A stretch of DNA of 63,445 bases, filler included, from Collodictyon triciliatum (lineage: Eukaryota): NCBI GenBank assembly GCA_043381765.1. It is 4 parts of 4 records of this genome, joined end to end, with 100 filler letters (N's around TTAATTAATTAA, not from the genome) between each part and the next. Parts side by side here need not be neighbours in the genome. Positions count along the whole stretch, not along the records: positions 33,887 to 51,940 come from JBHJMP010001407.1; 3 more parts are not named here. The stretch is one strand, 5' to 3'. Each line of letters starts with the position of its first letter. Positions within the stretch are counted from its first letter, which is position 1. Positions 15,441-61,400 of the stretch are shown piece by piece. A program made the translations under genes and the position numbers. The notes under the pieces are model-generated. The model was not told where the DNA came from, did not search any database, and was given only the letters and a program-made list of their open reading frames with translations.

Positions 15441-15468
15441 GTTCCTCCTATGCCTCCCTCCTTTTCTG

Positions 15469-15564
<96 letters not shown>

Positions 15565-15565
15565 T

Positions 15566-15665
15566 NNNNNNNNNNNNNNNNNNNNNNNNNNNNNNNNNNN
15601 NNNNNNNNNTTAATTAATTAANNNNNNNNNNNNNNNNNNNNNNNNNNNNNNNNNNNNNNNNNNNN
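15566..15665. other. Artificial scaffold linker (N44-TTAATTAATTAA-N44)
   Basis: A 12-mer with stops in all six frames sits at 15610-15621 between two 44-N runs. The identical structure recurs twice more. Confidence 0.97.
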
Positions 15666-34276: not shown

Positions 34277-37200
34277 ATGACCGAAACCTTCTTCACTCCG
34301 CTGGCCTCGTCTCGACCTGTGCGGACTCTGCAGCTAAGCAGCCAGCATTTATCCATGGTTCCAGCCGATATCATCACCATGAGCGAGCTGCAGGAACTCA
34401 ACATGAGCGACAATCCGCTGGGCAGACACATCCACGATGTTGTTCAAGACCTTCCTACACATATCTGCGTCCTGCAACTCGACCGTGCAGGCATCTCACA
34501 GATTCCAGAGAAGCTTCCCCGCAAGCTCACCAGCCTCAGTCGCCTTTCCATAGCTCACAACAAATTAACAGAACTGCCACATTCGCTGTCCATATGTGTT
34601 GGTCTGCAGATGCTTGACGCATCACACAATCTAATATCCACACTACCAATCGAATTTGCCTCTCTTTCTGCATTGACGGCCTTGCAGCTCACGCACAACC
34701 GCTTCAGCCGCAGGGCGGCTCTCATCCTCGATGCCATCTACACGAATCCACGCATTCTCAGCCTGGCTCATATATGCAAACCTACAAACACTGTATCTCC
34801 ATTTTCGACGGGGTCCGGCTCCACTTCCAACCTGGCAAACCTTGTAGAGTTTACTACCTTGATTAGTGAGTCTGTTGATATCAGTCTGGATGTAATATCC
34901 CCTTCAGCTGCTGCTCCCACAATTCCGGTTGCTGATGATACGTCTAACGATGAGCCCTGGGAAATTCTTCTTTCCTCGATAATCTGCCGTCTTCCAGCAT
35001 TGCACACACTTGACTTGGGTAGAATGTCTCTGAGTTCAGTGCCTGCCGGGCTTATCAACCTTGTATACTTGACCCGTCTATCACTAAATTCCAATCAAAT
35101 CCAGACGTTACCAATAGTCCTCACCAGCATGTCAACTCTCCGCACGTTGGATTTGCGTGAAAATCCCATCCAGTCGCTCCTCGCTATCGCTGGTCGCCTG
35201 CCTCACCTTCGCACACTTCTGTTTGATGTAGACAGCCTTTCTCAGGAGCATGAAAAGTTTCTCTTGCAGCGTATACAATGGCCCAGACAGTCTCTCAATC
35301 TAAATCCAGTTGCCATGGGCACTCTTCCACAGACTCATTCGTCTACAGCAACATCAGGAGTGTCTTCTCTTTTGAAATCGGCCCTCTCTTATCGCGGATT
35401 ACCATCGAATATGTCATCACAATCCTTGTTACCCACCCCAGCACAGTTATGCACTAGTGCCGATGGAGGTATTGCAAAAAGTACGAATGTCTTAAAATCC
35501 GTCCCAGCTCAAATTATACAGTTCCAGTGGCTTAGAACCTGTGACCTTTCTGGAAATAGCCTTTCGTCCCTCCCAGAAAAGCTTACTCTATGCAGTCGGA
35601 TTAGACGTCTGATATTATCTGGCAACTGTTTCAGTTGCATTCCACCAATTGTTACCCAATTCAAAAAGCTGCAGCTTTTGATGTTAGATTCTAATCAAAT
35701 TGATTCTTTGCCAGACTTCTCTTCAGATTTGACAACCCTAACGACTTTCGATCTTCGGGGGAATCCTTTGCCTCCCGATGTTCTTATTGTCTTCAGCATA
35801 TATGACTTTACTAATGGTCGTCTTGATTTATCTAAAAAAAACCTTACGTATATCCCCGATGTCGTACACAACCTGCCAAAGCTTCGCGTCTTGGACTTGT
35901 CTCACAACCTATTCTCTTGTATTCCTGATACAATCGGACTGGTGACCACTCTCATGAGCCTCGACCTTTCGTATAATAAACTGTCGACACTTCCCTCGAC
36001 GATGGCCGAGCTGAGTCGACTCACTAATCTCCGTTTGGACAACAATCGATTCAGCATATACCAGAGGGATTCGTCTCTTGTCTATGCAGATGACTACAAT
36101 GCCCCATATTTCGGGGACGTTTCATCTCGTCCAAATTGTAGGTCATCAATCGCTGCACAAAATGGTGATTGGAACAAAGGAGGTCAGAGACGTACAAACC
36201 CCTACTCGAGAGGTTCTCGAAGGTCAATCATCGACTTAGGAGATGAAAATATTGATTCCGTGCAACTATGTACTTACTTTTATATATGAAAAAAAAAGTA
36301 AAGTAAAAGAAAAGTAAAAGAAAAGATAATAAAAAATATGTCATCTAACGCGATTATTATTCAAAATAAAATATGACATTCTCATGTTGTTTTATCCATC
36401 TAAATAATTATTTCGCCAGGTCTTCCACCGGAATTATGTGAATTAAAAAATTGCGAAATCAGCTTGCTAGGAAACATGAAAATCCCTTCAAAACTACTAC
36501 AAAAATTCCCAGAGTTTATACAAAGTTCCAAATTATCGCCCCTTGTAAAATCGTTGAAAATCCTTCGTATCTTACGTATGATACCCTCTCATGATACAGT
36601 TCTAGCGTATAATTACGAGCAATACGCCTGCAAAAAACTATCACTAACCCTGAAAGAATCTGGTTCGCACGAGAGAACATCACTCATATCAGCGGACATT
36701 ATTAAGCTTGCTGTAGAGGCAGATGCACTTGACTTACTTGGAGACTCGAGAGTTCAAGAATCCATCAATCAAACGTGGACTAACCGGGCCAGTTTGCGTC
36801 GCTACTTGATGGAAAAAGAGGGCAAAGTGTCGTGGTTTGAAAATGGAATCTGGAAGGGTATCGCATTTTGGGCGGCTGCAATACATCATGAAACTCCAAA
36901 GTTTATGGCATCTCCTGGGGCCAAATTTTACTTTTCTGCGCTTGTATACGCTCTTTATTTAACCATTATCACTTTCTACCTCGTACAACAAAATTCGACT
37001 TATGAAACACCAACATACTTTTTCACCAGCACAATACGGAATTCTGTGGATCCATCTAATTTCATGCAAGACAGCGTGCCAGGAGACACAAACTTCTGGG
37101 GGTATCTTAGTTCGACTTTCGTGCCATTTATAGTCAAGGGCCCAGACAAAATATACGATCCTACAGACCCTAGAAGTAAAGAAATTCTTGCCTCCTACTT

Positions 37201-40200
37201 TCGTGTCGTGGGCCCTGTTCGACTTCGACAGCTTCGATCAAAATTGAGAGATTGCTCGTCTCTATCCCCTGATAGAAAACTGGATAAGAATCATCCATTA
37301 TCGAAGGGACTTTGTGTCAGACCTTTCACGATTTACGAGGCTGATAAATCTCCATACGGACCCGATGATGTTTTCCGATGGAAAAGCATTCACGAGTTGG
37401 GCTCATATGATGTTTTTGGTCAATTAAGTAATTGGTATGATGGAAGTGGATACGTCCACCACTTAAGTCACAATTATACCGAAATTATGAATGAAATCCA
37501 ATATCTCCAAGACAATAACTGGATTGACTTGCAAACGCGAGCTGTTTTTATTGAATTCATGACAGCAAATGACAATGCCGATATATTGACTTTTGGCAGA
37601 ATTCTTTTTGAAATCCCAGCGACAGGTTCTATACTGTATAAAGCGAAATACTTTACTGTCACAAAATCTGCCCTAGATATTCAGTGGGACTCATCTGTCC
37701 TCCTGTTTGCTTTCTTATTTCTTTACTCGGTGGGGCTAGTTTTCCACGAGTATCGACAGATGGTCAGAATGAGGAAGCAGTACTTCAGGGATGTTTGGAA
37801 TATAATGGATATCATCTTGATTTGTTTGTTGTGGTCTGCATTCGGATTGACAGTTCTCATCATGAACACAAATGTTGACCCATTTTCTGAATATGATACA
37901 GAGATATTTAAGGATTTCCAAAAAATTACCTTCTCCTTGGAGAAACAGAAGCAAGTAATGACTTTTTTGATGCTATGTTCATGGATTCGACTGTTGTACT
38001 TTTTCGGCGTCCACTCATCTTTCGGTCCGATGCAGATTGCTGTTGGTGCGATGACAGTGGACATGGCAAAATTTTTGCTTCTATTAGCTATATTTTTGGT
38101 AGCGTTTTCGTCCGCTTTCTACGCTGTGTTTGGGTCGGTATTAGCTAATTACTCAACAATCCGACTCATTGGTTATAGCTTAGGACAGGCTCTGTTTACT
38201 TCGTTTGACTTTGACAGCCTAAACGAAGCTGACCCATTCCTTGGTCCCATTCTACTATTTGCATTCATGCTCATCTGTGGTATTTTGCTCCTGAATTACT
38301 TGATTGCAATCCTGAGTGGGACATATGACACTATTCGCCGAAATTCTGTGCGCGAGTACAAAAAGATATTTGCGAAAACTGTTGTCACATCGCAAGAATC
38401 ACCCTGGCCACCACCGCTCAATCTGATATGGCCTGTTATCGGCATATTGATACCATTTTGGACGAAATTGAGACCTTTAATCAGAAAGCTCAAGTTTTAC
38501 TTGATTTACAGCGGAACAAGTCGAATGTTCATATGGCCTTTCCTCTGGGATGACTTGCTTCTAGAAAACCAAGTGAATGGGAGTCGATTTTATCCGAACA
38601 TATTTATGGTTCAGGACTTCGACGTGGTGAACGGGCTTTTTCTTACTATCTGGATTGACTACTTGATCGTAATGTTATCATGGTTACTAGCTGTTATTTT
38701 CAAGATTGTACTATACATCCCTGAAGTAGTCATGCGGAGATGGCGTGCATATAGCAGAGGTCGAACAGGGTTCCAAAAAACTTATCATCAAGGCATATTT
38801 GGCCAAATGACTCGTGATTTTAGTAAGTATGCCTCGTATGAGATGTCCAGTCTCGCTGATGGAGCATCTCCAAGTGACATAATACTGAAAGGAGGGTCTG
38901 CACCATCACCAAGACGAGAAGAGCCTAAACGCGTTGGCGCAAAACAGCAAAAATTATTCTCACTGTCTAAAAGTGGCTCCAACCTATGGGGGGAGGCTAC
39001 TCCAGTCCCGTTTGACGTCTACATATATGTGCACTGTGTCTCTGTTCGCTGCCTCTGGGTCATCACCATGCCTGTCTGGTGTCTTTTGTATTTCTTCAGG
39101 CACATAATTTGGGAACTTAAGGTAACTTTACGCAATAGAAACATCTCTCCACAGAATATACTCGCATTGTCCGTTTCTTTCTTTCTTTCTTTCTTTCTTT
39201 AGTATTTGCAGCGCTCTGCACCATCGATGAGACCATATGAATTTGTACTAATTTGTCATGTTTATTTAACCTTTTCCAAATTATTGCCATGGACAAATGA
39301 CTGGCGCGAATCAGAATCAAAACAGTAGGTTTTTTTTAAAACTTTTTCTCCCTTACATCAAAGCACACCATGATGTTTAAAATTTATGAAAACAAAAAGA
39401 ATCGTCATATGAAATACATAATCCCCGTTGGTTTCCTTAAAAGAGGAGAGAAAAAAGAAAAAGAAAAACGACGTAAGCATTGTCCCACACTTCACCACCA
39501 TTGTCTTAACAATATACATAATTTTACAAGGGTGCACCAACATCTTGTCGAAGGACTCGAAAGCTGATGTAGTGTACTCCAAAGATTTCCTGGTGGTGAC
39601 GAACAAATCACAGTCTCAGTTCACAAACGTATCGTGCATCCTTGCAGCAGACCCTTGGGAACCGAGTCTAGGTGTGTCGTACTTTGAAGTGGAAGTTTTG
39701 TTCCCTGGGTCCATTTCCATCGGGTTGATCCGAAAAGGAGACTCCAACATCCATGTCTTGGGCGACACTCCCGGCTCGATTGGACTCCGAGCCGAGGATG
39801 GTCACTTGGTCAGCCCTCACTTTGGCTCACATCAGATTTGCTTGCCATGGTCCAGGGTGGGTAGCATAGTTGGGTGTGGAGTGGACTTTGGACGCAAGGC
39901 TGTATTTTTCACATACAATGGGTGTCTACTGCCAAACGGAGTCACATGGGCGTATGAAGATCCTGTCTTCCCAGCAGTCCAGCTAAGCGAATATGCGGCG
40001 TCTGTGCGTGTAAACTTTGGAACAAGTCCCTTTCACGCCATGCATCCGTCATTCTCGATTGACCGTGCAAACAAGTTTGAAAAGTCCAAGTGGGATTATC
40101 TGCAAGTAACGCCCGATGGCTCTGCGGTTTCGTATCAGAAGGAAGGGACTGAAAGAGAGGCCTTAAGCGAGCTATGCCTTCTTCTGGCGCACAAAGGGTT

Positions 40201-41987
40201 CAAATTTCAACCCGAGCAGATCTCTTATTACGAGGTTGAACTCCTCCACTCGTCAAAGTATGGCGAGATAACTATGGGATTAGCACACTCTGATATACCG
40301 AGGTCTGGAGAGCTTGGCATCACAGCTGACTCCATTGGAATATCATACCTACCTGAGGCCGACTTCTTTGTTGTCCGATCGAGTTTGGCAGGGTAATTGA
40401 ACTGGATAATCTTTTTGACACACATACACACATACACACATACGTACATATTGCTTGAGTGTAGCCTGTCATTTTTGGACCGCCTCTCTGCTGAATTGCA
40501 GTTAAAGAGCTCGTCATTGAATCTTACATCACTTCTCCCCCTTAATACATCTCTCTCACTCTTACACTTGCCTCCATTTACGAATATAGTATTATATTCA
40601 TACATACAATAATAGAAACAAAATAAATAAACGCAGATACGAGGAGTACACATACCGAGTCGAAACTCTCGATCCCAACAAATCCATTATTATGGGATGT
40701 GGTGTTGACTTCAAGACCGACGTCATCTTTTTCACGGTGAACGGCCATCTTGTGCACGCAGCCACGTACGGGTCGCTGTACAATCGCCCCATTTTCTTCC
40801 CGGGCGTGATACTGGACGCCTTCGGACAGCTCCTCCGAGCTTCATGGAGATTGGATGTGGAGCCCGCCATTGTGGAGGGTGTGCGGTCGACACAGCAAAA
40901 GCTTGTGGGCAAATCCACAGAAGACCGAGACGGGGCGGCTGGCAAGAAGGGATACCACGCGGTCGACAAAGCAGGACGCCGAACGCCCACCGCGGGCCGA
41001 GTGCAGCAGAGCGGAACAGACGACATCACAGACGACGACGAGGATGAGGACGGCGATGATGACGGACCAGCTGTTGGGGACCGGCGGCACCGAATCAACG
41101 CGCCGTCCGACAAGAGGGCAGGACAGCATGCGTCTGTGCCCAACCTGAGAGACCGCGGCGAAGCGCCGACAGACAGCAGCGCAGGCACCGGCACCGGCAT
41201 AGCTGCAGATGCAGACCAGAATCCCACACTCCGCCTTCTGACGCGCCAAGGCCGCTCCGCAGACGCACCCGTCCTCGGTCTGTCTCCGCCCGGCCCACTC
41301 GCAGGGGGCGACCACGCGTCGGTGGCTGCGGCAGGTGTCGGCCTGGCAAGCCCGGCAAGTCTTGGACGCAGCGCCGGGGAAAGCATCGCCGGCGGGTCGC
41401 TGCTGCCGGGCAGTGCCGATGCCGGGTCGGCCGGTGCGCGCGGCAAGGCTGGGCGGCTGCTCTACGCGGCGTCTGTGCTGAGCATCAAGGGCAAGCAGGC
41501 CTCGAGCCGCGGGCAGATTGTAGTCCCAGTGGCCCAGCCGGCATCCTCTGCCGCGCCTCCGCTCACGCCCCACACGGCGGCTGCGGCGCTCTTTGCCTCG
41601 CAGTTTGCCGCCGGTTCAGACGCGTCGGACGCGGGCGAAAGCGCAGGCGGCAATGGACACGGGCAGCTGCTTCAGTCGTCGCCCAACGCAGGGCCCCATG
41701 CGAACGAGCAGGCGCAGCCCCCGTCTGAGAACGCGCGTCCCGTCCAGCTTGTGGACCGCGTCCACCGTGTGGTTGGAGAGCATCGGCGAAGGCAGTCGGC
41801 CATCCAGGGGACTTTCCGCTCAGACCGGCCGGCCATGGCCAGCGTCGTCTCTGCGGTCATGGCAGCGGCTGCAGAAATGCCGGCCAAGCAGCCTTCCCAG
41901 GTGAGTGCGCGCTTTGCGGAGGAAGAGGAGGAGGAGCAGCAGCAGCAGCATGCAGAGCCTCGAAGCACGCCACCGGCCGCGGACTAA
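34277..41987 (+). CDS. LRR + polycystin-2-like/TRP cation channel + two SPRY domains, ~2335 aa
   Basis: Exons 34277-36269, 36420-39121, 39212-39244, 39364-39430, 39531-40392 and 40637-41987 join in phase through GT-AG introns (7008 nt in total). Domains seen: many LxxLxLxxNxLxxLP repeats; polycystin TOP domain (VGPVRLRQLR..C, YDGSGY, LQDNNWIDLQTRAVFIEF..FEIPATG); S6 LLLNYLIAILSGTY; SPRY motifs YFEVEV..VGCGVDF..FFTYNG..VNFG and YYEVEL..MGCGVDF..FFTVNG. The start is tentative because it is near the scaffold edge. Confidence 0.8.
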
Positions 41988-42583
41988 TGCTGCTTGGCGC
42001 TCGGAATCATTCTGGCTGCTTCGCGTCTCTTTGCTGTGCTTTGCTCTGTTGTGCTGTGGAAGTGGGGTTCCTCTTCAAATGCGTTTCGCTTCTATGCAGC
42101 TGTTATCTCCCTATCACTTACCGGCTTTTCTTTTTCTTTTCCTTTTCTTTATTCTCTCTCTTTTTTTTCTTCATTTCTGTTCGCGCTCTCTAGCCCGCAG
42201 GCGAGTGCCATAAGCAACAAACAAACAAATAAACAAAGGAAAGTGAACCTGATAAATGAGACGGCTAACATGGGAAAGGAAGCAAGACAAAGAAAGCGTA
42301 TGAGAGCCACAGAAATTAATCTGTAGCTTATATGAACCCACCTAGTTTTAACTGGATACCGAGCGAAATAGCTGATGAAGGGGATAGACAAGAAGAAAGG
42401 GGGAAGAAAAAAAAGAGACAACAATGGAAAGGCAAGCGGGGTATTAGTAAAAACCCGAAAGATTTACAGACTTTACATAATATTTTTTTTTGTTTTTGTT
42501 TTATCAAAGAGCGCAGGAAGGGAACAATTTTTCAATTTACTTCATTATATTGCTCTCTTTCTCTTTTCCTCGCTGTTTCTGAA

Positions 42584-45500
42584 TTAAACGAGAGAATAGT
42601 CAATAGGCCAGGCAGTGAAGGAAGCAAGAGAAAGAATCGCCTCGCTATGGCCAGTCAAGCATGCGAGCTGATGCCCTGTCTCGGCCTGCCACACACCGAT
42701 TGTTTTGTCATAGCTCGCCGAAACCAAGTCCTGGATTGGTCCGGCTGGCAAAGCGTCTTGGTCTGATGGCTGCGATGGAGATTTTGGAGCGTATGGTAGC
42801 GTGATTGGGAGAAGGCAAGAGACATTCCATGTATGACCCTTGATGATGCGTAATTCTGTGGACGTGCGAAGGTCCCAGATGCGGATGGTTCTGTCTTCAC
42901 TACCGGAAGCTATGTAGTGGGTGCCTGGGAGGTGGCAACACGTATTCACAGCAAGAACATGGCCGCGCAAGCACAGTCCGGGCGAAGCTGTCCGTGGGTC
43001 CCAGAGGCGGACAGTCTTGTCTCCATAGAAACTTCCAGAAGCCGACAGGAGCGTGTCAGAATGCTGCTCAGGAGGCCGGCAGGATGCAAGCGCTTTGACA
43101 TGGCTTTTGTGCCCTGTCATGAGGCCTAATCCCTGCTGCGTTCGAGGGTCCCACAATCGGATTCCTGCATCGCTACCGTTGTACAGACTCCCACCCGATG
43201 CCAGCCACTCTCCATGCCCCGCTACATCAATAGAGCAGAGAGACAACACAGCAGCCTCGTGGCCCACAAGATTAGCTTCCGCTTGAAGCCCTGTAGTCGC
43301 TCCATTCGTCTCTGCACCTACAGGCTTAATAGCATCTCGCGGAGCTGACCAGAGTCGCACAGTGCGGTCGTATCCAGCCGTTGCAACCAACCCAGCAACC
43401 TGACAGACAGAGTACACAGCCTGTTGGTGTCCTGAAGCTTCCCACATTTCGCGTCTCTTATCTGGTTGCTGCTCTTTTTGATGAGGCGTTCTGCGCTCAA
43501 TCACGGGCCGCATTCGAACTCGACCATCGCTCCCGCTAGTGAGGATGCGCAAATCATCTGCATAATGCAAAGGGACCCGGCTGAGCACCTTTGTATTTAT
43601 TTGGTCTCTTACATCATCGCTTGTTTCTCGTGCTAGTCCCGTGATACCCTCTCTTTCTTGATGAACAACACCGGGCCGAAAAATGGATGTACACGTTATT
43701 CCTTGGTCATGTGCCTTGATTCTCTGGTTGGCCAGTGCCCACCCTTTGGGGTGACAAAGGTCCCATATGCTCAAATTTTTGTCTTCCCCTCCACTAATTA
43801 CATATGGTCTTGGATGGCGGTATGCTTTTTCTATGGGGCTCAATCCCTCTTCATCACCGTCATTATTATCATGGCCATCATCTCCTGCGTCATCCTGATC
43901 CCTCCCATTTTTTCGCTGTGATAGCCGTGGGCGTGTAGGAGCTTTTGGTGGGACAAAAGAACCGTCTGCTATCTGTAAGCTGACTTGAAGCTGCTCAACT
44001 GTGCTTTGTAGTTCATCAATCTCACGGAGAGCCTCCAAGTGCAAAGCATGATGACTTTCAGATTCTGCTGTCCTTGATTGGAGGTGGCGTCGAAGTTGTA
44101 TAACTTCCTCTTGTAAGCGTTGTTGCTGCATGCGAAGGGAATGTGCCTCGTCCAAACGGTCTCGAATAGCCATGTCCATAATATCTGTTCCGAAACTTTC
44201 TGAATGGACAAGGTTGCCAACTGATTCCGTTGCATTCGTAAGAGCCTCAAGACTCTCTTGGATTGATAGGTCAGCTGGATTGGCTTTCTCTAATTTTAAT
44301 AGACCCTCCAATCCATCGGTTAATCGCATTTGTTCATAACGCGTGAATCGGAACGGTTCTTCGGAAAGCATATCGGCAGTTAGTTTGGAAATCATTCTTC
44401 CATCTATGTGTTCTTGGCAGAGCACAGACAATATTCGTTGAGGTACATGCTGCTTCGACAGTTGCTCAGCCAATTGAGTTGCTGAAAGGGAGTGTAGATT
44501 GAATTGCTTGGTATGCACATTTTCCTTAATTTCACGGCTGTTGGACTTCGTCTTTGTAGAACTTGGCTTTGTATTCTGCATCGTTGGATTTGTGCGGGGG
44601 TTAGCACAATGACGGAAAGCTATACCACAGAGAAACTGTACCCAAGACGATAAAGATGGTTGCTGATTTGTTTTGAGGCTAAGCGAGTCATGAAGAAATT
44701 GGCGGAATTCCGGGTGAATAGATGATGCTCGTGGAATGGACAAAAGAGATATAGGTTGTGGGTTCGATGCACTAGAATTGGCCGACATGGATGGAGAACC
44801 AAGCAACATCTCACAAAACACTTGGGCCAAGGAGAAGCACAGGTGGCTTTGGATAGTTTCCTGATTAATGTGCGTAGATTCTGTTGGTGACTCAAGTTGT
44901 GAGCAGCCTTGGACAATACTAAATGGAAATAACCCCGAGTCAGAAAGTCTCCAGCAACCATCTGGGAATCGAAGAATCTTGGATGAGCTTAGGCGTTGGT
45001 AAGTTTTCCCAGGATTCTTTTTAAATTGCTCCAGCAAGGCTGATACGATGGGTATTAAAGTGTTGGCTGCGAGTGCGGGCGGCAATCCAATTTGGCTGTG
45101 CATGGGTGAATCAAGCCAGTCTCGCAAGGAGCCAAGAGGCGTAAAGGGTACCAAGGCGATGACCTTTGATATTTTATGGCCTTCAAGAGAGTCATCCGGA
45201 ATGATTCTAAAGCTGAGAAATGGGACGATATGAGATGGGCATTCCTTTGTGATGCTTTCCACGTCCGATATGGAAGAAAATCCTGTTTCAGGGCTCAGCT
45301 GAATGGAAAATGTCCTCAGCAATCCGGTAGCAGACTCTGGAGGCATTTGAGAAGTATCTTGGCTGTAATTACCTCCAATTCTTAATTCCTTGTAATTTGG
45401 CTCTATTCCGATGGTTGCAAGTAGCATAGGTGGATTTTTCTTTGCTCTGAAGGGAACAGCATGATTTTCATGCTTTGCTATCCGCTCTTTCAGTGCTTCC

Positions 45501-46156
45501 AGTTTACCTTTCCACATCTGGATTTCCTGTCTTCTGTTTGCCGAAAGGGACTTTAGCGATGTCTGTGTTTGTGAGCGAGGGGAGGATAACAGGTGACTTG
45601 CAAGGTCTGTGTCTGTGTCCAGAGCCAAGTAGAGCTGCTCCATGCCATTGTCTACTCCATAGACTCGAGCCAGTCGAAGTACAGAATCAAGCGCACTGTT
45701 TTCCTTGATTGTATGAATTGCCTCGTAGGCAGGCGCACACATGGCCAACAATGCCGCTGCACCATCGTTACGAGGGGCTATGGCATATAAAGAGAGGCTC
45801 ATTTGGCCTTGGTCTCTCGCCTTTGCACGGGCCCAGACCGGGTTGAGCGTCTCCGAGAGGCACTCGAGAAACAGATTGTCCAGCTGATCCTCTGGATACA
45901 GAAGCTGAATCCAGTCGTCCCCGTCTGAATGGAGGCCTTGCCATAGTTCAGCACACTTTTGCGCAACTCTCGAAGCAGCCGTCAGTGTGAGTGCGGTAGG
46001 GATGCAGGCTACTCCAATAGCGGTTGGTGCCTCTGGAACTTGGGCTGCGGCGCTTCCCAGGATCTTTGAAAGCAGCAGAAATCGGTTGCGGCAGCGAGTC
46101 TGCTTTGTCTGCTCACACAGGCCGATCGTGCGTCCAATCACCAATTCATGGCTCAT
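42584..46156 (-). CDS. Single-exon 1190-aa protein: helical N-terminal domain, pseudokinase, SAM, coiled coil, WD40 propeller
   Basis: Kinase-fold remnants: PFTPLGSLRDWL, YQRLSSSKILR, WRLSDSGL, FSLAQVFCEMLLG. SAM-like: LSATQLAEQL..LCQEHIDGRMISKLTADML. About 7 WD40 repeats, e.g. GHVLAVNTCCHLPGTHYIASGSEDRTIRIWD. Confidence 0.85.
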   Translation of the reverse strand: MSHELVIGRTIGLCEQTKQTRCRNRFLLLSKILGSAAAQVPEAPTAIGVACIPTALTLTAASRVAQKCAELWQGLHSDGDDWIQLLYPEDQLDNLFLECLSETLNPVWARAKARDQGQMSLSLYAIAPRNDGAAALLAMCAPAYEAIHTIKENSALDSVLRLARVYGVDNGMEQLYLALDTDTDLASHLLSSPRSQTQTSLKSLSANRRQEIQMWKGKLEALKERIAKHENHAVPFRAKKNPPMLLATIGIEPNYKELRIGGNYSQDTSQMPPESATGLLRTFSIQLSPETGFSSISDVESITKECPSHIVPFLSFRIIPDDSLEGHKISKVIALVPFTPLGSLRDWLDSPMHSQIGLPPALAANTLIPIVSALLEQFKKNPGKTYQRLSSSKILRFPDGCWRLSDSGLFPFSIVQGCSQLESPTESTHINQETIQSHLCFSLAQVFCEMLLGSPSMSANSSASNPQPISLLSIPRASSIHPEFRQFLHDSLSLKTNQQPSLSSWVQFLCGIAFRHCANPRTNPTMQNTKPSSTKTKSNSREIKENVHTKQFNLHSLSATQLAEQLSKQHVPQRILSVLCQEHIDGRMISKLTADMLSEEPFRFTRYEQMRLTDGLEGLLKLEKANPADLSIQESLEALTNATESVGNLVHSESFGTDIMDMAIRDRLDEAHSLRMQQQRLQEEVIQLRRHLQSRTAESESHHALHLEALREIDELQSTVEQLQVSLQIADGSFVPPKAPTRPRLSQRKNGRDQDDAGDDGHDNNDGDEEGLSPIEKAYRHPRPYVISGGEDKNLSIWDLCHPKGWALANQRIKAHDQGITCTSIFRPGVVHQEREGITGLARETSDDVRDQINTKVLSRVPLHYADDLRILTSGSDGRVRMRPVIERRTPHQKEQQPDKRREMWEASGHQQAVYSVCQVAGLVATAGYDRTVRLWSAPRDAIKPVGAETNGATTGLQAEANLVGHEAAVLSLCSIDVAGHGEWLASGGSLYNGSDAGIRLWDPRTQQGLGLMTGHKSHVKALASCRPPEQHSDTLLSASGSFYGDKTVRLWDPRTASPGLCLRGHVLAVNTCCHLPGTHYIASGSEDRTIRIWDLRTSTELRIIKGHTWNVSCLLPITLPYAPKSPSQPSDQDALPAGPIQDLVSASYDKTIGVWQAETGHQLACLTGHSEAILSLASFTAWPIDYSLV

Positions 46157-46636
46157 TTTGTTGTGCGAGGCTGCGAGTCTATTCGGCGGAATAAACCCAC
46201 CTTTTTCCTTGTTGTCTGTGTCTGCGCTTCCTCCTGTCCGCTTGTGCCTGTCGGTCGTTGCCTTTTTTTTTTTGATCCTTTTTCTTTTTCTTTTTGAATA
46301 CCCTTTTTTTTATTGATATTTTTTTTTCTTAAATCTCAATTTTGTTTTGGTTTAATCCAGAAAAAGGAATATTGTTATGGTATATTATATATGGTTGATA
46401 TACCACGGTATATATAATATTGTATCTGTCGCATCCCAATGCCTGTTCTCTGGCTTGACAGGCCAAAAGCTGCCACAAGATCGAGGCGCGTTGCGCAGGC
46501 ACATAGGGAACAACCTGCTCGGCCATTGTCGACGCGCCTCAGTGCAGCCCCTTCTGCTTGCTCGCCTCACGTTCGAAGCAAACGACCTTCGATATCACCT
46601 CACCAACAGATTGTCTGGCACTGTCATCGTTCTCTC

Positions 46637-46744
<108 letters not shown>

Positions 46745-46840: not shown

Positions 46841-47963
46841 ATGGACCTGGCTGAGCTGGAGAACAGCGTGTTCACGGAGCGGCGGGAGGAGATTGTTGTG
46901 GGGCGGGAGATCGCGGAGGCGGCGGGGGCGGCGGGATGGCGGGAGCAGGGGCAGGAGCAGGAGCAGGTGTGGGGGTGGCACTGGGGCGAGTGGCAGGGCG
47001 TGCCGGTGACGGTGAAGGTGATCCCGTGGACGTGCTTCGACCGGCCGCACTGGTCGCAGCGGCGCGGGGAGCTGGCGGGGGTGTACGGGGCGGCGGGGGT
47101 GAGCGCAGAGCCGGATGCGGACGAGCTGGACGGGACGGGCAGCTACGCGGGGCTGCTGCAGAGGATCCGCCTGCTGCGCTCCCACCCGCACCCGGCCATC
47201 CTGACCGTCTACGGCGCTGCGCGGGGCGACGATGCCATCTACGTCCTCGTGGAGCACCCGCATCTGCCGCACGCGGGCACTGCCGCCCTGGCCATGCAGC
47301 CGGGCCTGCCTCCCTGTGCGCCGCACGCTGTGCTGCACTGGGCGCGCCACCTGGCCTCGGCCCTGGCCTTCCTGCAGGCCCACGCGGCCGTCCCGGGCTC
47401 GGCATACGGCGCCCTCTCGCCCCTGTCCGTGGCCACCGCCGCCGCCGCCAACGCCGCTGCCAAGCCCTGGGCAAAGCTGGACCCGCTGCCCCAAGCCGCG
47501 TTCCTCGCCTGCGCCCCGCTGCCCCACGAGCTGCCCCCCGTGCTCTGGCCCTTCTGCGCGCCCGAGCTGCTCGCCCGCCCCCCGCCACACTCCGCTCACC
47601 CCGCCGCCGCCGACACCTACGCCCTCGCCGCCCTTGTCCGCTGCCTCCTCGCCCCGCACCCGCGCCCGACCCCTGCCTTCCCACCCCTCATCTCCCCCAT
47701 CCCCGTCCCTGTCCCAGCGACCGCCGCCCCGCACCCGCGTCCCCCGCGCCCCTCCCTCCTCGACTACCTCGCAGCCGGCCCCTGGTCCTCCCCCTGGGTT
47801 CCCAACGACCGCCGCCTCGCACCCCTTGCAAGGTCCATCTCTGCCGCGCTCTCTCCGGACCCCGCCAGGAGGCCTGCCCTCTCCAACATCGCCGCAATCC
47901 TCAAGCAGGCCCTCCTTGTCCCGGAGTCGGTGTTTCTACTGGTTGGTCCTCTCTCTCTCTTTT

Positions 47964-48051
<88 letters not shown>

Positions 48052-51000
48052 TCATTCATTCTTTCATTCTTTCTTTCATTCTTTCTTTCATCGTCACATT
48101 CATGATGCTTTTCATTGAATGAACATCGCTGTGTGCAGGAGCATTCGCAAAGGATGGACACAGAGTACGGTTCTTCTCTCAGTCAACATGTCTCTCCACT
48201 TGGTAACCATCCGGCCTCTGGCTTACATGAGAAAAGTGTCCCATCGCCGGCAGATTTTGCCAAGGCTGAAGATTCTATGGGGCCACAGAAGCTCCCTCAA
48301 AACTTTTCTGATCAGATAGAATCACCGGCCCTCAGTAACTTCAAGGACGATTTGAAAGCTAGTTTTGCTCCGGTTGAAAAGGGGAATTTTATCGATGCTG
48401 CTGCCCTCCTTCTCTCCCTCGGCCAAGAACCTCTGGCTCCCAAATCGTCGATGGAACAATCACTCTCTCATGGTCATGATGTCAAAAAGGATGTAGGGAT
48501 TCGAAGTTTGACTGATTCCAGTGATATTTACCAACTTTACGATAGACTGTTGCACCATTATGGATCTGCTCCTCACAACGCTCCAATGGAATATTACGAG
48601 CCTTGTGTTGTTCTGATCCGAAAAATATTCCAAATCGATTCTACCTTTCTTCCTCTTTGGATAACCTTTCAACATATAAGTGATGACAAACCAAAACTTT
48701 TCCCTTATTCTGAGTTCAATCCGATGATGAAGCAACTATACCAATCCTCCAAGACTCTATCACCTGATAAACTCAGGTTCTGGGAATCATTTGTTGTGTC
48801 TCTATTCGAACAAAACAGGCTATTCATTTCCTCGTCGCCTGTCTCTATCCTCAAAGTTTTGGTATATTCTGCCTTTTATTTGTCATACGTAAAGAACACC
48901 CATCTAACTCTTTCTTCTCTGGTCGAAATCACATCGCAACAAGGAGGACAGCCTGAAATACCCGCACCATACTTTGTTTATGGGTATTATATACTAGCAG
49001 GGATGTTTGGGAAAGGAATGCTCTTAGAGCAAGGTGTTGGGTTTTTGGGGAAAGCTGCGATGATGGGGCACGCATACGCGCAGTACAAGTATGGCCAGTC
49101 ATACGAATCGGGCATTGGTGTTCGAAAAAGTATCTCAGAGGCCTTCCACTGGTACAAACTATCTGCAGAGAACGGTGATAAAAGCGGGCAGTTCAACCTG
49201 GCGAATCTGTACTACCAAGGTATAGGTTGTGCGGCAAACCATGTGGAGGCCAAAAAATGGATGAAGTCTTCTGCTGACCAAGGGCATCCCAACGCTATCG
49301 CCATGATGGAAAAACTCGGGGACTCACAAAAACAATATGGGAAACATGTGCATGTGCAAAATCGTGAAAAACAAACAGACCCCAATATTGCCGATCTTGT
49401 GTTACAATCCATGCAAAAAATTGCAGACAAAGAGGAGAGCCCACAGGCCATGGTGGCAGCTGGGAAAAACTATCTTTATGCTAGGGACATTGCACAAAGC
49501 AAACAGAAAGCGTTTGAAATATTCACCAAAGCAGCCGAAGCAGATTACATCCCAGCAAAATACTATGTTGCTTTTTGTCTAGAGTATGGACATGGAGTTG
49601 TTATGAACGTAAGGAAGGCTATCGATTTATACCGATTATGTGCTGATAAAGGTCACGATGGCTCTCAATATCGCCTTGCATACCATCTTTTCATCGGTTC
49701 GTACATCCAGTCAAATTATGCGGAATCTGCTCATTTCTTACAGCTCGCTGCCAGTCAGAATTTCAAACAGGCGCAATATCGGTTGGCTACATTTTATTTA
49801 TCTGGAACTGGTGTGGAAATGAACAAAGAGGAGGCTTTCTTTTGGATGAAAACTTGTGCGGATAAAGGTATCCTCGATGCCATCTGCGAGGTAGGGTTGT
49901 TCTACCTGAAAGGCACAGGAACAGAAGTCAATCAACCTCTTGGACTAAAATACCTCAAGACAGCCGCAAAGTATGGTCATGAGGAAGCTTTGGAGCTCTA
50001 TTCCCGCTATGAGGGAAAATTACAAAGCGGGTTTACTCCCAGCGCGCAGGCGTATCGCAAGGTAGTGGACCGAAAATTTGAAATCATAGAAGATGATAGC
50101 GACGAGGAAGATGGGAAAGATGAGTCAGTCCATAAAAGTGAAAATGCTACTGGAGATGAGGAATCTGACTTGAAAGAGTTTGGCGGTGAGAAGTCCAAGC
50201 CTGCCCGTTCTGAGAATGACAAAGAGGATCTTTTGAAGACAATGACCATTTTGCGAGAGCAGAAAATTGCGCCTGCCGAGGATGGAAGAGGGGCAAAGTC
50301 TGCCAGCTCTCCTTCGGTGCGTTCACAGGAAAGAGACGTCAATCCCATGACTTATGTACACTTGATACCAGGAGATGAGGAAACAAGAAACTACGAATTG
50401 GGTATGGAATATCTAGAAGCAACGACTGCTCACCAAAAGAACTATACAACTGCATACAACTACTTTTTACAAGCAGCAAAGAAAGGGCATGCACAGTCCA
50501 TGAGTATGGTAGGGAAAATGTGGAACGAAGGACTTGCAAGACCGATTGATGACGAGAAGGCTTTTAGTTGGTACACTGCTGCCACTGAGAAGGATGACAT
50601 GGAAGGGATATACATGCTTGGTAAATATTACTATACCGGCCTTGCCTCAGTTCGGTCTGCGGAGCGTTCTTTCTCTTTATTGAAGAAGGCAGCAGAAAGA
50701 AATCACGCAGGTGCACAGAGATATGTTGCATACCTTTATCAAGAGGGTTATGGCACCCAGCGCAGCAACCAGGAATACATCCGCTGGCTACGAAAGTCAT
50801 CGAGTAACGGGGACATGACTGCGACGTATCAGTTGGGTCGAGAAATGATTAGTGGCAAATGCACAGGCGTGAAGGATTTAGTGGAAGGATTTTCGCTGTT
50901 TGAAAAGGCTGCCAACGCAGGAAATCGGGTATCCATGCTTTACGTGGCCCAGTTATATGAATCTGGCTATGGCGTAGAGAAGGATATACAGCAAGCTAAA

Positions 51001-51081
51001 AAATACTATACGATGGCTGACCATGCCGGGTATTACAAGGCTAAAAAGGAGCTTGCCCGTTTAAAAGAACAAGGCTACTGA
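46841..51081 (+). CDS. TKL-like pseudokinase fused to Sel1-like repeats, 2 exons
   Basis: Exon 1 has kinase motifs GEWQGVPVTVKV, HPAILTVYG..IYVLVEH, WARHLASALAFL, FCAPELL, ADTYAL and DPARRP. Phase-0 donors at 47930 or 47942 match the phase-0 acceptor TGCAG|GAG at 48139, across a (CTTT)n intron. Exon 2 has roughly 14 Sel1 repeats, e.g. AQYKYGQSYESGIGVRKSISEAFHWYKLSAENG. Confidence 0.78.
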
Positions 51082-57739: not shown

Positions 57740-58436
57740 TTTTCTTCTCATTGCATATCCTGTCTTTGGCCCCCTTTTTTAACTTATTTTTGCCATTTGT
57801 CTTATCCCACGATTTTACTTGTAATGATAGATACTTTTGCCCTGTCCTGCTATACATCCTGCGTTTCTCACTTTTTTTCCACATCCTTATTGAGACACCC
57901 ATATATTAAAATCTGAAGAAAATGTAGATTATTGTGGCTTAATGCACAACGAGCCAANNNNNNNNNNNNNNNNNNNNNNNNNNNNNNNNNNNNNNNNNNN
58001 NNNNNNNNNNNNNNNNNNNNNNNNNNNNNNNNNNNNNNNNNNNNNNNNNNNNNNNNNNNNNNNNNNNNNNNNNNNNNNNNNNNNNNNNNNNNNNNNNNNN
58101 NNNNNNNNNNNNNNNNNNNNNNNNNNNNNNNNNNNNNNNNNNNNNNNNNNNNNNNNNNNNNNNNNNNNNNNNNNNNNNNNNNNNNNNNNNNNNNNNNNNN
58201 NNNNNNNNNNNNNNNNNNNNNNNNNNNNNNNNNNNNNNNNNNNNNNNNNNNNNNNNNNNNNNNNNNNNNNNNNNNNNNNNNNNNNNNNNNNNNNNNNNNN
58301 NNNNNNNNNNNNNNNNNNNNNNNNNNNNNNNNNNNNNNNNNNNNNNNNNNNNNNNNNNNNNNNNNNNNNNNNNNNNNNNNNNNNNNNNNNNNNNNNNNNN
58401 NNNNNNNNNNNNNNNNNNNNNNNNNNNNNNNNNTAC

Positions 58437-61400
58437 CGCAACATTCAGAAGATAAAACGAGAGCCACGCCGACTCTGCATTTTCCTTCTCGACCAAGAGC
58501 TGGAGTAACCCAAGTTCAATAGATAAGATTAGTCTATCGAGTTTTCGATGGCAAATCATTCTCTACTCTCATTTTTTTCAATAGAAAAAGATTAATTCCT
58601 CTCCTACTGAAGCTAAACTCGCATATTTTGCATATGTATTCATGTAATCACTGATATGACGAGCAATTTAAATAACCGATAAATGATCGTATGATGAGCA
58701 GAAAATCAACTGGAATACCATCTGGAAGGAGAAGCACCGAATATTTAGGAACTTGTAGCGCCGATCAAGAATTCCGTAGCCGAGTTCAAGCGCATCCAAC
58801 ACAGATTCGTATGTTGGCTTCAAGTCTGTCCACTTCTTCCGCAAGATACCCAACGATGTGGATTTCTATGCATGCAAATGATTATGCAGATGTCTGTCAG
58901 CTTACTCTCTCACACAAGCAAACGGAACGTCGACAACATCACACTCACCCACAAACATCAGACTGGCGTGGATTGCACAAGATGACAAAGGATAAAGGAC
59001 AAAGGACAAATGACAAATGACAAAGGACAAAGGACAAGGGACAGGCCACGGCAAACTCACGTCTTCTTCGGGAATCTGAATCATGTCGGGGAGTTTCGTA
59101 GTTTCTAGTCGTTCCTCCAACCATTCTGTGAAAATATCGATGTTCATTCCGTCTTTGAGGCCGTTTTTCCCGTGGAACACATCGTGGAGCTGCGAGTGGA
59201 CTTGTTAGATATTGATTGAAGGGAAGGAAGAAAAAAAAGAGGTCATATTCAATACCTCAGCCCAGGAAAGTAACCAAGGAAATACAAACGAGGATTTTGA
59301 AAGGAAAAAGTCTGTACTGCTTTTTCTGGGATGTCCAGGTCAAACAACTTTGCAATAATCCAGAGCTCATCCTTATCGATGCATTTGTTTCGGTCGCCAT
59401 CTGCGGCGTTGAATGCGCTCTTTGTAATTTCAAACAGATTGTTCGTTGTTGCGTGTGATGAAATGAAACAAATAAGTTGAGCGAAGGTAAAGAGTTGTAG
59501 TGTGTATATACGAAGTGTCTGGGATATAAAGCAAGAGGCGAAAACAGGTAGAAAGTCCCATGATTTCTCATCTAGTTATTCATCGTAAAAATACGCCGAC
59601 CAAGAAAGAGAATAGATTTAAATAGGTCTTCGTCATGTGCTTCTAGAATTCTTACTCGAAGAAAGTGCTGTCTTTTTTCATTCTCTGATATCCACTTGTT
59701 CATGATAAATGCCGTGAACTTGTCGAAATCGACAAACTGCTCGTCCCTTTTTCATACATGGAAACAAAATAGTAATCAGTGTTTACTTTTTAAACTAGGA
59801 AAGGAAGAGAGAAAAAACAACTCTGTCACGACGGAAGTGGCTGGACGATGAAAGCATACGATTCGCCTCCGCTCTGGCTCGGCAGACGCATTTCACTCCC
59901 GAGTTGCTGCTGAATGTCCTTTGAGTTGAGCGAATCAGGGGCAAACTTTTCGATGATTTTGTTTGCTCGCGTGATTGGGATTGTGATGCGGCCGGTTGCA
60001 TTCCCTACAAAGTTGTAGAATTCATCGCGTGATTGGACCACATTATGGAACTCTCGATGTCTCAGAGATTCTAATCCCACCATCTGAAGAAATAGGAAAG
60101 ATGGCGCACTTTCTTTTCTTTTATTTTTTTTTTTGATGGATTGTTTGCTTGCTTGTTTGTTGTTTGTTTGTTTGTTTGTTTGTTTGTTTGTTTGTTTGTT
60201 TGTTTGTTTGTTTGTTTGTTGTTGTTTGTTGTTTGTTGTTTGTTTGTTTGTTTGTTTGTTTGTTTGTTTGTTTGTTTGTTTGTTTGTTTGTTTTTTGTTT
60301 GTTTGTTTGTTTGTTTGTTTGTTTGTTTGTTGTTTGTTTGTTTGTTTGTTTGTTTATTTGTTTGTTTGTTTGTTTGTTTGTTTGTTTGTTTGTTTGTTTG
60401 TTTGTTTGTTTGTTGTTTGTTGTTTGTTTGTTGTTTGTTTGTTTGTTGTTTGTTTGTTTGTTTGTTGTTTGTTTGTTGTTTGTTTGTTTGTTGTTTGTTT
60501 GTTGTTTGTTTGTTGTTTGTTTGTTTGTTGTTTGTTGTTTGTTGTTTGTTTGTTTGTTGTTTGTTTATTTGTTTGTTTGTTTTTTGTTTGTTTTTTGTTT
60601 GTTTTTTGTTTGTTTTTTGTTTGTTTTTGTTTGTTTTTGTTTGTTTTTGTTTGTTTTTTTTTGTTTTTTTTTTGTTTTTTTTGTTTTTTGTTGTTTTTTG
60701 TTTGTTTTTTGTTTGTTTTTTGTTTGTTTTTTGTTTGTTTTTTGTTTGTTTTTTGTTTGTTTTTTGTTTGTTTTTTGTTTGTTTGTTTGTTTTTTGTTCA
60801 TTTGTTTTTTGTTTGTTTTTTACTTTTTTACATACGGAAGATACATAAGAAGGTATAATCGAATCAATCATATGATAGGAAGAGAGGAAAGTATGAACAG
60901 TAAGATCTAAACGGAAATTCACCCTGAAGTGCTCGGATTCCTCGACTCACCGTCCCACCGTCAACCAGAACAGTCAGTAATTGGCTGCACAATCCGTAAT
61001 CGAAAAAAAAACATATATATTGTGAACAATTGGGAATATGCATCATTTTAATATGAAATTGGCCTCGTATTACTTGTACCATTTTATGTACGAGGTTCAT
61101 ATCATATTGTAATTCAATTTTTTGATTGTTTCTGAATAAATAAATTTATAAATACATGAATATTTGAAAGTATTTGTTCAGAAGCGGTGCATGCTTCAAA
61201 TTGGGCATTCGACAGAATCGTAGAAACCATTGACAACGAAGTGAATTATCAGCATTCTGGATTGCTGTGTAAATCATGTCCTGTAGTTTCTACACGTGAT
61301 GTGAATTATCTTTATGTGATATTTTAAATACATGATAGGACGCAAAAGAAAAAAATCGACACAAATATTCCCTTTCTTTAGAAAAAAACTATTATTTTTT

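Follow-up and report, generated by a model that had tools for sequence, protein, structure and literature searches.

Helical-bundle killing heads are known from animals (MLKL), plants (the MLKLs, RPW8 and the CC-NLRs) and fungi (HeLo/HELL). The animal MLKL bundle is basic, and activation of the vertebrate protein depends on RIPK3. Kinase folds combined with WD40 or SAM domains include VPS15/PIK3R4, ZAK/MAP3K20 (SAM and zipper), and the Dictyostelium and oomycete TKLs.

Among the plant members the AtMLKLs are described as possessing a kinase-fold domain without the catalytic residues (10.1101/681015, PMC10951266). The oligomer that the plant proteins form is reported there to be an auto-repressed tetramer (bioRxiv 10.1101/681015, PMC10951266), their four-helix head is given as DUF1221 (PMC10951266), and a five-helix brace and a tail beyond the pseudokinase are described (bioRxiv 10.1101/681015). 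The MLKL structures in the PDB include 4BTF and 2MSV, as cited in 10.1101/681015. In fungi an "all-in-one" architecture is described in which one polypeptide joins a helical killing head to an oligomerising part and a WD40 sensor (PMC12881547, PMC9815663), and the hnwd genes are characterized by strong internal conservation among their WD40 repeats (PMC12881547). Protists offer a further point of reference, as proteins of this general kind are common: approximately 9% of the kinases of Phytophthora infestans are predicted to be inactive, and the accessory domains borne by protist TKL kinases include SAM and WD40 (PMC3019232). We present here an analysis of a 1190-amino acid protein of the freshwater protist Collodictyon triciliatum, which we compare with these systems.

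Gene, transcripts and relatives

The window, by which we mean the whole stretch of DNA analysed (63,445 nucleotides, filler included), is draft sequence with 10 runs of N, none of which falls within the ORF. The first-pass annotation had placed a possible MLKL-like protein at 42584..46156, and an uninterrupted frame of 1190 codons is found at exactly those positions on the minus strand (42584-46156). The features of the locus are:

46157..46262, minus strand: 5' UTR, 106 nt; cDNA 5' end at approximately 46262 (X1 contig)
42584..46156, minus strand: complete CDS, 1190 aa plus stop (stop codon 42584-42586), beginning at the first ATG past an upstream in-frame stop
45797..46156, minus strand: orphan N-terminal head, aa 1-120, a candidate MLKL_N/HeLo-like bundle (amphipathic-helix periodicity)
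45440..45796, minus strand: linker, aa 121-239, with a charged stretch at aa 206-231 and no family match
44612..45439, minus strand: predicted pseudokinase domain, aa ~240-515 (hhalign, shuffles, hmmsearch, language-model neighbours)
44501..44611, minus strand: Ser/Thr/Lys/Asn-rich low-complexity linker, aa 516-552 (composition)
44282..44500, minus strand: putative SAM-like domain, aa 553-625 (PDB 2dkz_A match, Diphylleia conservation)
43937..44209, minus strand: coiled-coil-like region, aa 650-740 (heptad scan)
43811..43936, minus strand: acidic Gly/Asp-rich linker, aa 741-782 (composition of aa 746-780)
42587..43810, minus strand: seven-bladed WD40 propeller with loop insertions, aa 783-1190 (Pfam, PDB, seven blade ends)

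The X1 contig, from a probable cDNA run, stops at 46262 and continues into a 22-nt loose end which we take to be the reverse complement of the end of the Smart-seq template-switch oligo. The first AUG of the ORF is supported by this cDNA 5' end, and scanning of the 106-nt 5' UTR for ATG revealed none. Near-identical contigs are present in four public runs from three studies; these cover about 2.5 of the 3.57 kb of the CDS and contain no joints, stops or frameshifts. Near-identical contigs occur in a metatranscriptome (X14) as well as in the X1 run, RNA-library contigs span parts of the ORF, and the gene is probably transcribed. Further runs with small shares (X4-X13, X15-X23) were not counted as evidence of habitat. 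The low-depth contigs differ at 6 nonsynonymous and 5 synonymous sites, a ratio which gives no clear sign of purifying selection. In codon usage the gene is close to its LRR, polycystin and Sel1 neighbours (cosine 0.87–0.90), and the window holds no paralogue of the protein.

A search of 1.84 billion representatives gave a single relative, a transcript of Diphylleia rotans (CRuMs) without the N-terminal part, in keeping with the protist host proposed earlier. In this orthologue-like protein conservation extends from the end of the kinase C-lobe to the C-terminus, that is over the C-terminal 725 aa. The first 465 aa have no relative among these representatives, nor a detectable one among approximately 15 billion predicted proteins. 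Homologue searches with aa 1-760, and with a 560-aa piece at E ≤ 10, were negative, and no relatives were found on viral contigs. A metagenome match of 31 residues (L001) does not extend and was taken as chance.

The kinase-like domain

Assignment of the kinase domain depends on our own profile tests, which were built from bacterial kinases. Against a profile of 18 such kinases (296 columns) hhalign aligned aa 240-511 with positions 6-280 (prob 79.9, E 1.4e-5, 250 columns). The score of 42.1 was reached by none of 150 shuffles (mean 14.1, sd 2.6, maximum 26.8), and the controls (the sequence reversed, and three further segments of the protein) all gave prob ≤0.7. A repeat with 50 kinase rows resulted in a score of 39.5 (prob 75.0) which none of 60 shuffles attained. 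With hmmsearch the region scored 6.2 bits compared with a maximum of 0.6 for shuffles (0/500), while hmmalign produced a local alignment only. Lastly, among the language-model neighbours of aa 1-560, all 10 of the best family-bearing clusters are kinases (0.93, 206 shared features). None of the Pfam kinase models, including Pkinase and PK_Tyr_Ser-Thr, matched at E ≤ 10, and a phmmer search of the PDB with aa 1-560 returned no matches; the predicted fold is detectable by profile-profile and language-model methods only. A PF07714 search for a TKL-specific profile gave the same bacterial Hanks kinases as PF00069.

The first-pass annotation had described a kinase fold with its catalytic motifs lost, reading YQR for HRD and DSG for DFG, and the hhalign register upholds this. 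The position of HRDxKxxN is occupied by Y386-Q387-R388-L-S-S-S-K393, with R388 at the catalytic aspartate and K393 at the catalytic-loop asparagine, that of the beta-3 lysine by Q286, and that of DFG by D406-S407-G408, in which the aspartate is retained. GxGxxG keeps its first glycine only (G262), the other two being lost. The match is collinear through both lobes, and of the catalytic residue set only D406 and G262 survive. Since the beta-3 lysine, the HRD aspartate, the catalytic asparagine and two G-loop glycines are replaced, we consider the domain to be a pseudokinase. Judged by these residues, phosphotransfer by the predicted domain is excluded in practice. The region of its activation loop is rich in serine and threonine.

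SAM-like domain, coiled coil and WD40 propeller

The linker following the pseudokinase (aa 516-552) varies in length and is little conserved relative to the Diphylleia rotans protein. Beyond it lies the best-conserved stretch outside the WD40 region, with 45% identity over 86 columns to the D. rotans protein. The first-pass annotation had proposed a SAM domain here. A two-sequence profile of aa 545-630 matches a sole PDB chain, 2dkz_A (84 residues, E 6.6e-4), while the single sequence reaches E 0.03 over 61 residues. The database title of 2dkz is "hypothetical protein LOC64762"; we take it to be a SAM domain, although the literature yielded no pertinent report on this entry. The structural match speaks for the proposal, but no Pfam SAM model matches this protein or its relative even at E 10, and the presence of a SAM-like domain is weakly supported. 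PF07647 was found in none of five bacterial genomes, but as the control genomes also gave none this negative carries no weight.

Heptads at aa 658-698 and 700-735 bear out the coiled coil claimed earlier, and a corresponding Gln/Glu/Leu-rich region occupies this position in the D. rotans protein. The linker that follows contains 11 D+E and 5 G in the 35 residues of aa 746-780.

That the protein ends in a WD40 propeller, as had been claimed, is certain for the predicted sequence. PF00400 matches with E 1.3e-31 (108.1 bits, cut-off 27), each of the 22 Pfam families found at E ≤ 1 describes a WD40 or other beta-propeller fold, and seven blade-end motifs are present. A PDB search returned 544 matches (best 7.5e-46), the best 60 listed being exclusively WD40 or beta-propeller chains; the WD40 domain of PkwA (5yzv_A) matches with E 2.6e-30. 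The D. rotans protein is 33% identical over 451 columns in this region (E 3e-58). All seven blades are divergent repeats of the ordinary sort; their pairwise identity averages 0.29 (maximum 0.48). The first-pass annotation had likened the propeller to the WD40 sensors of fungal NLRs. This analogy is not supported: Pfam scans of the protein revealed no NACHT, NB-ARC or other NTPase family, and blades as divergent as these are unlike the hnwd repeats.

N-terminal head and linker

By eye, aa 1-110 had been likened to the MLKL four-helix bundle. Alignment did not confirm the likeness. No Pfam family, including MLKL_N (PF22215) and DUF1221 (PF06760), matched aa 1-260 at E ≤ 10, in a scan whose HMMER filters discard most matches above approximately 0.1. 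A phmmer search of the PDB with aa 1-125 gave 12 chance-level matches (E 0.25–1.6), none of them to MLKL, HeLo or RPW8. PF22215 was found above cut-off in none of five bacterial genomes and in none of 401 genomes of one phylum, and three sub-threshold PF22215 loci are unlike the head (hhalign prob ≤0.5).

Helical periodicity is strongest, among seven segments, in aa 1-120 (z 2.2, a value reached by 4 of 200 shuffles), and is not significant in aa 121-239 (z 1.0); the power of this test is low, as the SAM and coiled-coil controls gave no signal. The net charge of the head is -2. A Chou-Fasman sketch of the secondary structure was dropped as unreliable. Complex prediction of aa 236-520 with aa 1-235 gave ipSAE values of 0.00 and 0.00, with a partner pLDDT below 50 in at least one run, and so speaks neither for docking nor against it.

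Uncalibrated language-model neighbours alone point to MLKL, plant MLKL and RPW8 clusters. Five of the 30 nearest clusters of aa 1-560 are of MLKL type: the neighbour at rank 2 is a Streptophyta cluster in which 100% of members carry Pkinase and DUF1221, the rank 4 set holds three vertebrate MLKL clusters, and at rank 11 stands a basidiomycete cluster, 23% of whose members carry MLKL_N. With aa 1-235, four of the eight rows shown carry MLKL_N (10–62% of members), two MCAfunc and one RPW8 (99%). The scores of the latter search (0.76–0.80, with 126–139 of 256 features shared) are uncalibrated, shuffled proteins obtaining a first-hit score of at least 0.8 in one-third of cases, and the two queries overlap and count as one source. 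We put the odds of a HeLo/MLKL_N-type fold in the head at a little below even. By analogy, the 119-aa linker could play a "brace"-like role.

Proposed function and alternative explanations

On balance we lean towards a non-catalytic adaptor as the product of this gene, one that associates with itself and has a dead kinase fold at its core. Its most likely mode of action is to signal through assembly and recruitment rather than to kill by way of the membrane. From their domain classes, the SAM-like domain and the coiled coil of about 80 residues would make homo-oligomers, while the propeller would bind a conserved partner or ligand. The pseudokinase, with its Ser/Thr-rich activation-loop region, might act as a conformational or phospho-regulated switch, and would link partner binding and assembly to the N-terminal helical head as the output module. 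Oligomerisation, partner binding and the lack of nucleotide binding are all inferred. The absence of MLKL_N, DUF1221, HeLo and RPW8 matches in Pfam and the PDB, together with the net charge of -2, argues against a killing head. Even should the head have another fold, the protein is a lineage-restricted pseudokinase scaffold.

The first-pass annotation had proposed a self-contained sensor, oligomeriser and executioner. The order of pseudokinase, SAM-like domain, coiled coil and WD40 propeller agrees with that layout, but the executioner head is suggested by language-model neighbours only. In such an MLKL-like effector a four-helix head of the HeLo/MLKL_N type would be kept inactive by brace and pseudokinase; ligand binding by the propeller and clustering through the SAM-like domain and coiled coil would then free the bundles for membrane insertion or perturbation, or for immune signalling of a non-lytic kind, of which plant MLKLs are capable. 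The MLKL-type neighbours of aa 1-560 and aa 1-235, including those carrying MLKL_N, MCAfunc and RPW8, favour this explanation, and the order of head, linker of approximately 120 aa and pseudokinase is that of MLKL. The periodicity of aa 1-120 points the same way, as do stretches of the first and last helices that we take to be similar in the head and in MLKL, at near-equal spacing. Yet alignment-based support is absent (Pfam with aa 1-260, PDB with aa 1-560 and aa 1-125), the scores for aa 1-235 fall in the range that one-third of shuffled proteins reach, and the neighbours of aa 1-560 could reflect just a helical extension plus a degenerate TKL-like domain. The head is also slightly acidic, and no described MLKL has anything that corresponds to the 675 aa beyond the pseudokinase. 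We regard this explanation as rather unlikely, and a lytic or immune executioner role for the protein as doubtful.

Some presumed pseudokinases are reported to have been found later to be active or to bind nucleotide (PMC4718504, PMC8141879), and one might imagine that the retained D406 allows nucleotide binding and a non-canonical transfer. With the beta-3 lysine, the catalytic aspartate, the catalytic-loop asparagine and two of three G-loop glycines replaced, and divergence so great that the Pfam kinase models miss even E 10, we consider an atypical active kinase very improbable. Still less credible is a decaying or mis-assembled gene without function of its own. The draft state of the window with its runs of N, the lack of any relative of the N-terminal 465 aa and a number of nonsynonymous differences no lower than that of synonymous ones might be cited in its favour; against this the 3.57-kb frame is open and itself free of N, contigs from four runs and three studies carry no stops or frameshifts, RNA-library contigs span parts of it, and a second genus conserves its C-terminal 725 aa. 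The non-catalytic adaptor is the reading that we prefer.

Significance

It is conceivable, though we would not expect it, that a CRuMs protist bears an MLKL-type death or immune effector fused to its own oligomeriser and WD40 ligand sensor. If true, effectors consisting of a head and a pseudokinase would extend beyond animals, plants and fungi, which would argue that they arose early in eukaryotic evolution or were assembled more than once, and the protein would be a natural all-in-one counterpart of the forced dimerisation employed by experimenters. Were the head MLKL/HeLo-like, it would occur in a lineage from which no such head has been described so far, and with a built-in oligomeriser and propeller the activation logic would be directly testable in a single polypeptide. 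The kinase fold described here also illustrates that standard annotation misses much of the signalling machinery of protists.

Comparison with known systems

A literature search for the combination found no protein in which a head is followed by pseudokinase, SAM, coiled coil and WD40 in that order. The plant MLKLs (AtMLKL1-3 and wheat Pm13) are alike in having a helical head, a long linker, a kinase fold and further C-terminal sequence, and the language-model search with aa 1-560 places the DUF1221-kinase cluster second among the nearest clusters. Unlike them, the Collodictyon protein has no DUF1221 or MLKL_N match, and no similarity to them is detectable by HMMER; their tail is unstructured and rich in serine, while that of the Collodictyon protein is made up of SAM-like domain, coiled coil and WD40 propeller.

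Vertebrate MLKL likewise has a pseudokinase after a helical N-terminal region, and three vertebrate MLKL clusters appear among the 30 closest to aa 1-560 in the language-model search. None of the PDB MLKL structures matches the protein at E ≤ 10. Vertebrate MLKL ends after the pseudokinase while 675 more residues follow here, and its basic bundle differs from a head of net charge -2. With the MLKL family as a whole the protein shares a degenerate kinase fold C-terminal to the head; it does not end at the pseudokinase or in a serine-rich tail.

The fungal HeLo/HELL heads and the basidiomycete MLKL-like heads on NLRs resemble it as a concept, namely a head, an oligomeriser and a WD40 sensor. In the fungal NLRs the central part is NACHT or NB-ARC and the WD40 repeats are highly conserved, whereas here a pseudokinase, a SAM-like domain and a coiled coil stand in its place and the blades are divergent. 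Bacterial PkwA, the propeller of which (5yzv_A) matches that of the Collodictyon protein, is alike in joining a kinase fold to a WD40 propeller.

Gene model and transcription

The gene lies on the minus strand, and its start codon is the first ATG downstream of the upstream in-frame stop. The features among which it lies are as follows.

Features of the window, with strand
13828-14652, minus: O-GlcNAc-transferase-like fragment (Glyco_transf_41)
17601-19427, minus: microbial-type poly(ADP-ribose) glycohydrolase ORF, 608 aa (Pfam PF10021, E 3.4e-10; PDB 3sig_A, E 7.4e-4)
34277-36289, plus: LRR protein, 670 aa
36476-39202, plus: polycystin-type cation channel, 908 aa
39422-40396 and 40590-41987, plus: two-SPRY gene, tail-to-tail with the studied gene
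42584-46156, minus: CDS of the studied gene, one open frame of 1190 codons, ATG to TAA
46841-48118, plus: kinase-like ORF, head-to-head with the studied gene, 685 bp from its start codon
48154-51081, plus: Sel1-repeat ORF, 975 aa (Sel1, E 4.6e-64)

Contigs from four public sequencing runs match the region 42300-46500 at 99-100% identity in long pieces. They span about 2.5 kb of the gene's 3.57-kb coding sequence and contain no joints, stops or frameshifts. One of these runs (X14) is recorded as a metatranscriptome. A contig from another (X1) spans 45239-46262 and ends in a 22-nt tail, which we take to be the reverse complement of the Smart-seq template-switch oligo; if so, the cDNA 5' end lies at approximately 46262. 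The 5' UTR would then be 106 nt long, and a sequence scan finds no ATG in it. The gene is probably transcribed, a grading chosen because contigs from RNA libraries are no proof of transcription. The eleven coding differences in the contigs (five synonymous, six nonsynonymous) are too few, and their depth too low, for selection to be read from them.

No intron was seen in the gene, though the genome has them elsewhere: the second SPRY domain of the tail-to-tail neighbour is divided over two frames, which places an intron at ca. 40397-40690. The long single-exon ORFs suggest that the genome is intron-poor. The 3' part of the two-SPRY gene is low-complexity and GC-rich. Coding GC3 is bimodal across the window (e.g. 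14661-15617 vs 36476-39202), being 0.43-0.47 in the studied gene and the LRR, polycystin and Sel1 ORFs, and 0.71-0.81 in the M16 peptidase ORF, ORF 40692 and the neighbouring kinase-like ORF. The codon usage of the gene is close to that of its LRR, polycystin and Sel1 neighbours (cosine 0.87-0.90, against 0.55-0.75 for the high-GC3 group).

The window is a draft scaffold, as its ten N runs (2377 bases: 8898-9492, 14210-14611, 28421-29060, 57958-58433 and six of 44 bases) indicate. They give rise to spurious low-GC bins and spurious gap-crossing ORFs; none of the ten falls within the studied gene. The strong GC/AT skew at 60-62 kb is due to a (TTGT)n array of ca. 680 bp (60141-60821).

Organism and relatives

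Among 1.84 billion representative proteins the sole relative is the transcript-derived P0002 of Diphylleia rotans (E 6.9e-14), which begins within the kinase C-lobe; the C-terminal 725 residues are conserved between two genera, Collodictyon and Diphylleia. Since D. rotans is placed in CRuMs (Collodictyonidae) and two runs with matching contigs (X2 and X14) are labelled freshwater metagenome, the source is a protist, as first proposed. Elsewhere in the window, a mitochondrial-processing-peptidase-like ORF has full-coverage matches no closer than 54-55% identity, and the microbial-type poly(ADP-ribose) glycohydrolase domain (17601-19427) sits in a eukaryotic context.

Kinase fold

Pfam returned no family at E≤10 for aa 1-260 or aa 230-560, and phmmer against the PDB gave no match for aa 1-560 and one chance match for aa 236-520. 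As neither Pfam kinase model matched, a kinase profile was built from PF00069 searches of five bacterial genomes chosen via WD40 loci; 18 of the 30 loci supplied rows, the remaining 12 being in the wrong frame or short pieces. With hhalign, aa 240-511 aligned to profile columns 6-280 of 296 over 250 columns (score 42.1, probability 79.9, E 1.4e-5). The 150 shuffles averaged 14.1 (sd 2.6, maximum 26.8, highest probability 8.9), and probabilities stayed at ≤0.7 when the sequence was reversed or when three other regions of the protein were aligned instead. A 50-row profile (59 loci, nine left out, some rows representing one gene twice with slightly differing ends) gave probability 75.0, E 2.6e-5 and score 39.5, with none of 60 shuffles above 20.7. 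Unfiltered hmmsearch of aa 236-525 scored 6.2 bits, equalled by none of 500 shuffles (maximum 0.6), the aligned piece being the subdomain IX-X region only. Independently of hhalign, a protein-language-model neighbour search (atlas) with aa 1-560 found kinase clusters at 0.93 (206/256 features shared), and all ten of the best family-bearing matches were kinases.

In the hhalign register the HRDxKxxN position reads YQRLSSSK (aa 386-393) and the DFG position DSG (aa 406-408), exactly as in the first-pass annotation; the beta-3 Lys position is Q286, and G262 is the sole glycine retained of GxGxxG. With its catalytic motifs replaced in this way, the domain is, on its sequence, a pseudokinase. Its activation-loop region is rich in Ser/Thr.

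The head-to-head ORF (46841-48118), too, resembles a degenerate kinase fold in its alignment and motifs. It is GC-rich (GC3 0.81), and against the 50 kinase rows hhalign gave a score of 27.2 (probability 9.6), equalled by none of 100 of its own shuffles (maximum 21.2). Five of its six weak PDB matches (E 0.12-0.18) are kinases; the HRD motif is gone, the beta-3 Lys and APE are retained. It is possibly a single gene with the Sel1 ORF (48154-51081), joined through an intron, in which case it and the studied gene would be two divergently oriented genes that each code for a dead kinase followed by repeats. The kinase-like stretch is followed by a (TCTT)n array (47950-48089) and then by the Sel1 ORF, and a perfect (CA)51 microsatellite (46640-46742) lies in the 5' intergenic region common to both genes.

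SAM-like domain, coiled coil and propeller

The most conserved stretch outside the WD40 region is aa 553-625, which is 45% identical to the Diphylleia protein over 86 columns. The Pfam SAM models match neither protein. A two-sequence profile of the region matches one small PDB chain, 2dkz_A (E 6.6e-4); a single-sequence search finds the same chain at E 0.03 over 61 residues. Its only label in the search output is "hypothetical protein LOC64762", and we take it to be a SAM domain. For the SAM domain proposed earlier this is weak support, and aa 553-625 is probably such a domain. Two charged, proline-free, heptad-compatible stretches (aa 658-698 and 700-735) agree with the proposed coiled coil.

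The WD40 propeller, also correctly called, is the only part that Pfam detects (PF00400, E 1.3e-31); each of the 22 families that reach E≤1 is a WD40 or beta-propeller model. It has seven blade-end motifs and a mean blade identity of 0.29, and shares 33% identity and its signature loops with the Diphylleia protein. By this comparison it is a conserved docking domain rather than a hypervariable repeat array.

The N-terminal head and the rank of the readings

Both a dead kinase fold and a propeller are present, and on balance we favour a non-lytic assembly scaffold. The SAM-like domain and coiled coil would drive oligomerisation, the propeller would bind a conserved partner, and the pseudokinase would couple assembly and binding to the head. 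The second-ranked reading, an MLKL-like executioner or immune effector, we consider rather unlikely.

Whether the head has the HeLo/MLKL_N-type fold, the four-helix bundle of the first-pass annotation, is close to an even question, tilted slightly towards no. Vertebrate MLKL makes up three of the five MLKL-type clusters among the 30 nearest to aa 1-560 in the atlas; the other two come from basidiomycetes, with MLKL_N in 23% of the members, and from streptophytes, with DUF1221 in every member. PMC10951266 describes DUF1221 as the four-helix head of plant MLKLs. A query with aa 1-235 alone lands nearest to clusters bearing MLKL_N (10-62% of members), MCAfunc, RPW8 or TNFAIP8, at scores of 0.76-0.80 with 126-139 features shared, a range that one shuffled protein in three also attains. 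The two queries, which overlap, are a single line of evidence. Amphipathic-helix periodicity, a weak test, is highest in aa 1-120 among seven segments (z 2.2, equalled by 4/200 shuffles). The points that count against the fold, or are neutral, are the lack of any Pfam match to the head at E≤10, MLKL_N, DUF1221, HeLo-type and RPW8 models included, the lack of any MLKL chain in the PDB search, where aa 1-125 gave 12 chance-level matches, a net charge of -2, and the absence of a hydrophobic segment of transmembrane strength (top 19-residue window in the head 1.46). MLKL_N exceeded its cut-off in none of five bacterial genomes and none of 401 genomes of one phylum. Plant MLKLs show, moreover, that a genuine HeLo head can act by means other than killing (10.1101/681015).

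Comparison with known systems

The order head, linker, pseudokinase is that of MLKL, but the 675 residues that follow the pseudokinase are not MLKL-like. The first-pass annotation had also likened the propeller to the WD40 sensors of fungal NLRs, for which an "all-in-one" HeLo-NLR-WD40 concept is described in PMC12881547 and PMC9815663. Since the NACHT domain is absent and the WD40 repeats are of another type than the fungal ones, that likeness is at most an analogy, and we do not retain it. In a literature search on MLKL, WD40, SAM domain and HeLo architecture, "SAM domain" was absent among the matches listed. Protist kinase-fold proteins with SAM or WD40 domains are commonplace (PMC3019232). 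Should the head prove MLKL-like, this would be the first MLKL-like protein from a CRuMs protist; we class the protein as a probable pseudokinase scaffold, a novel form of a known protein type.
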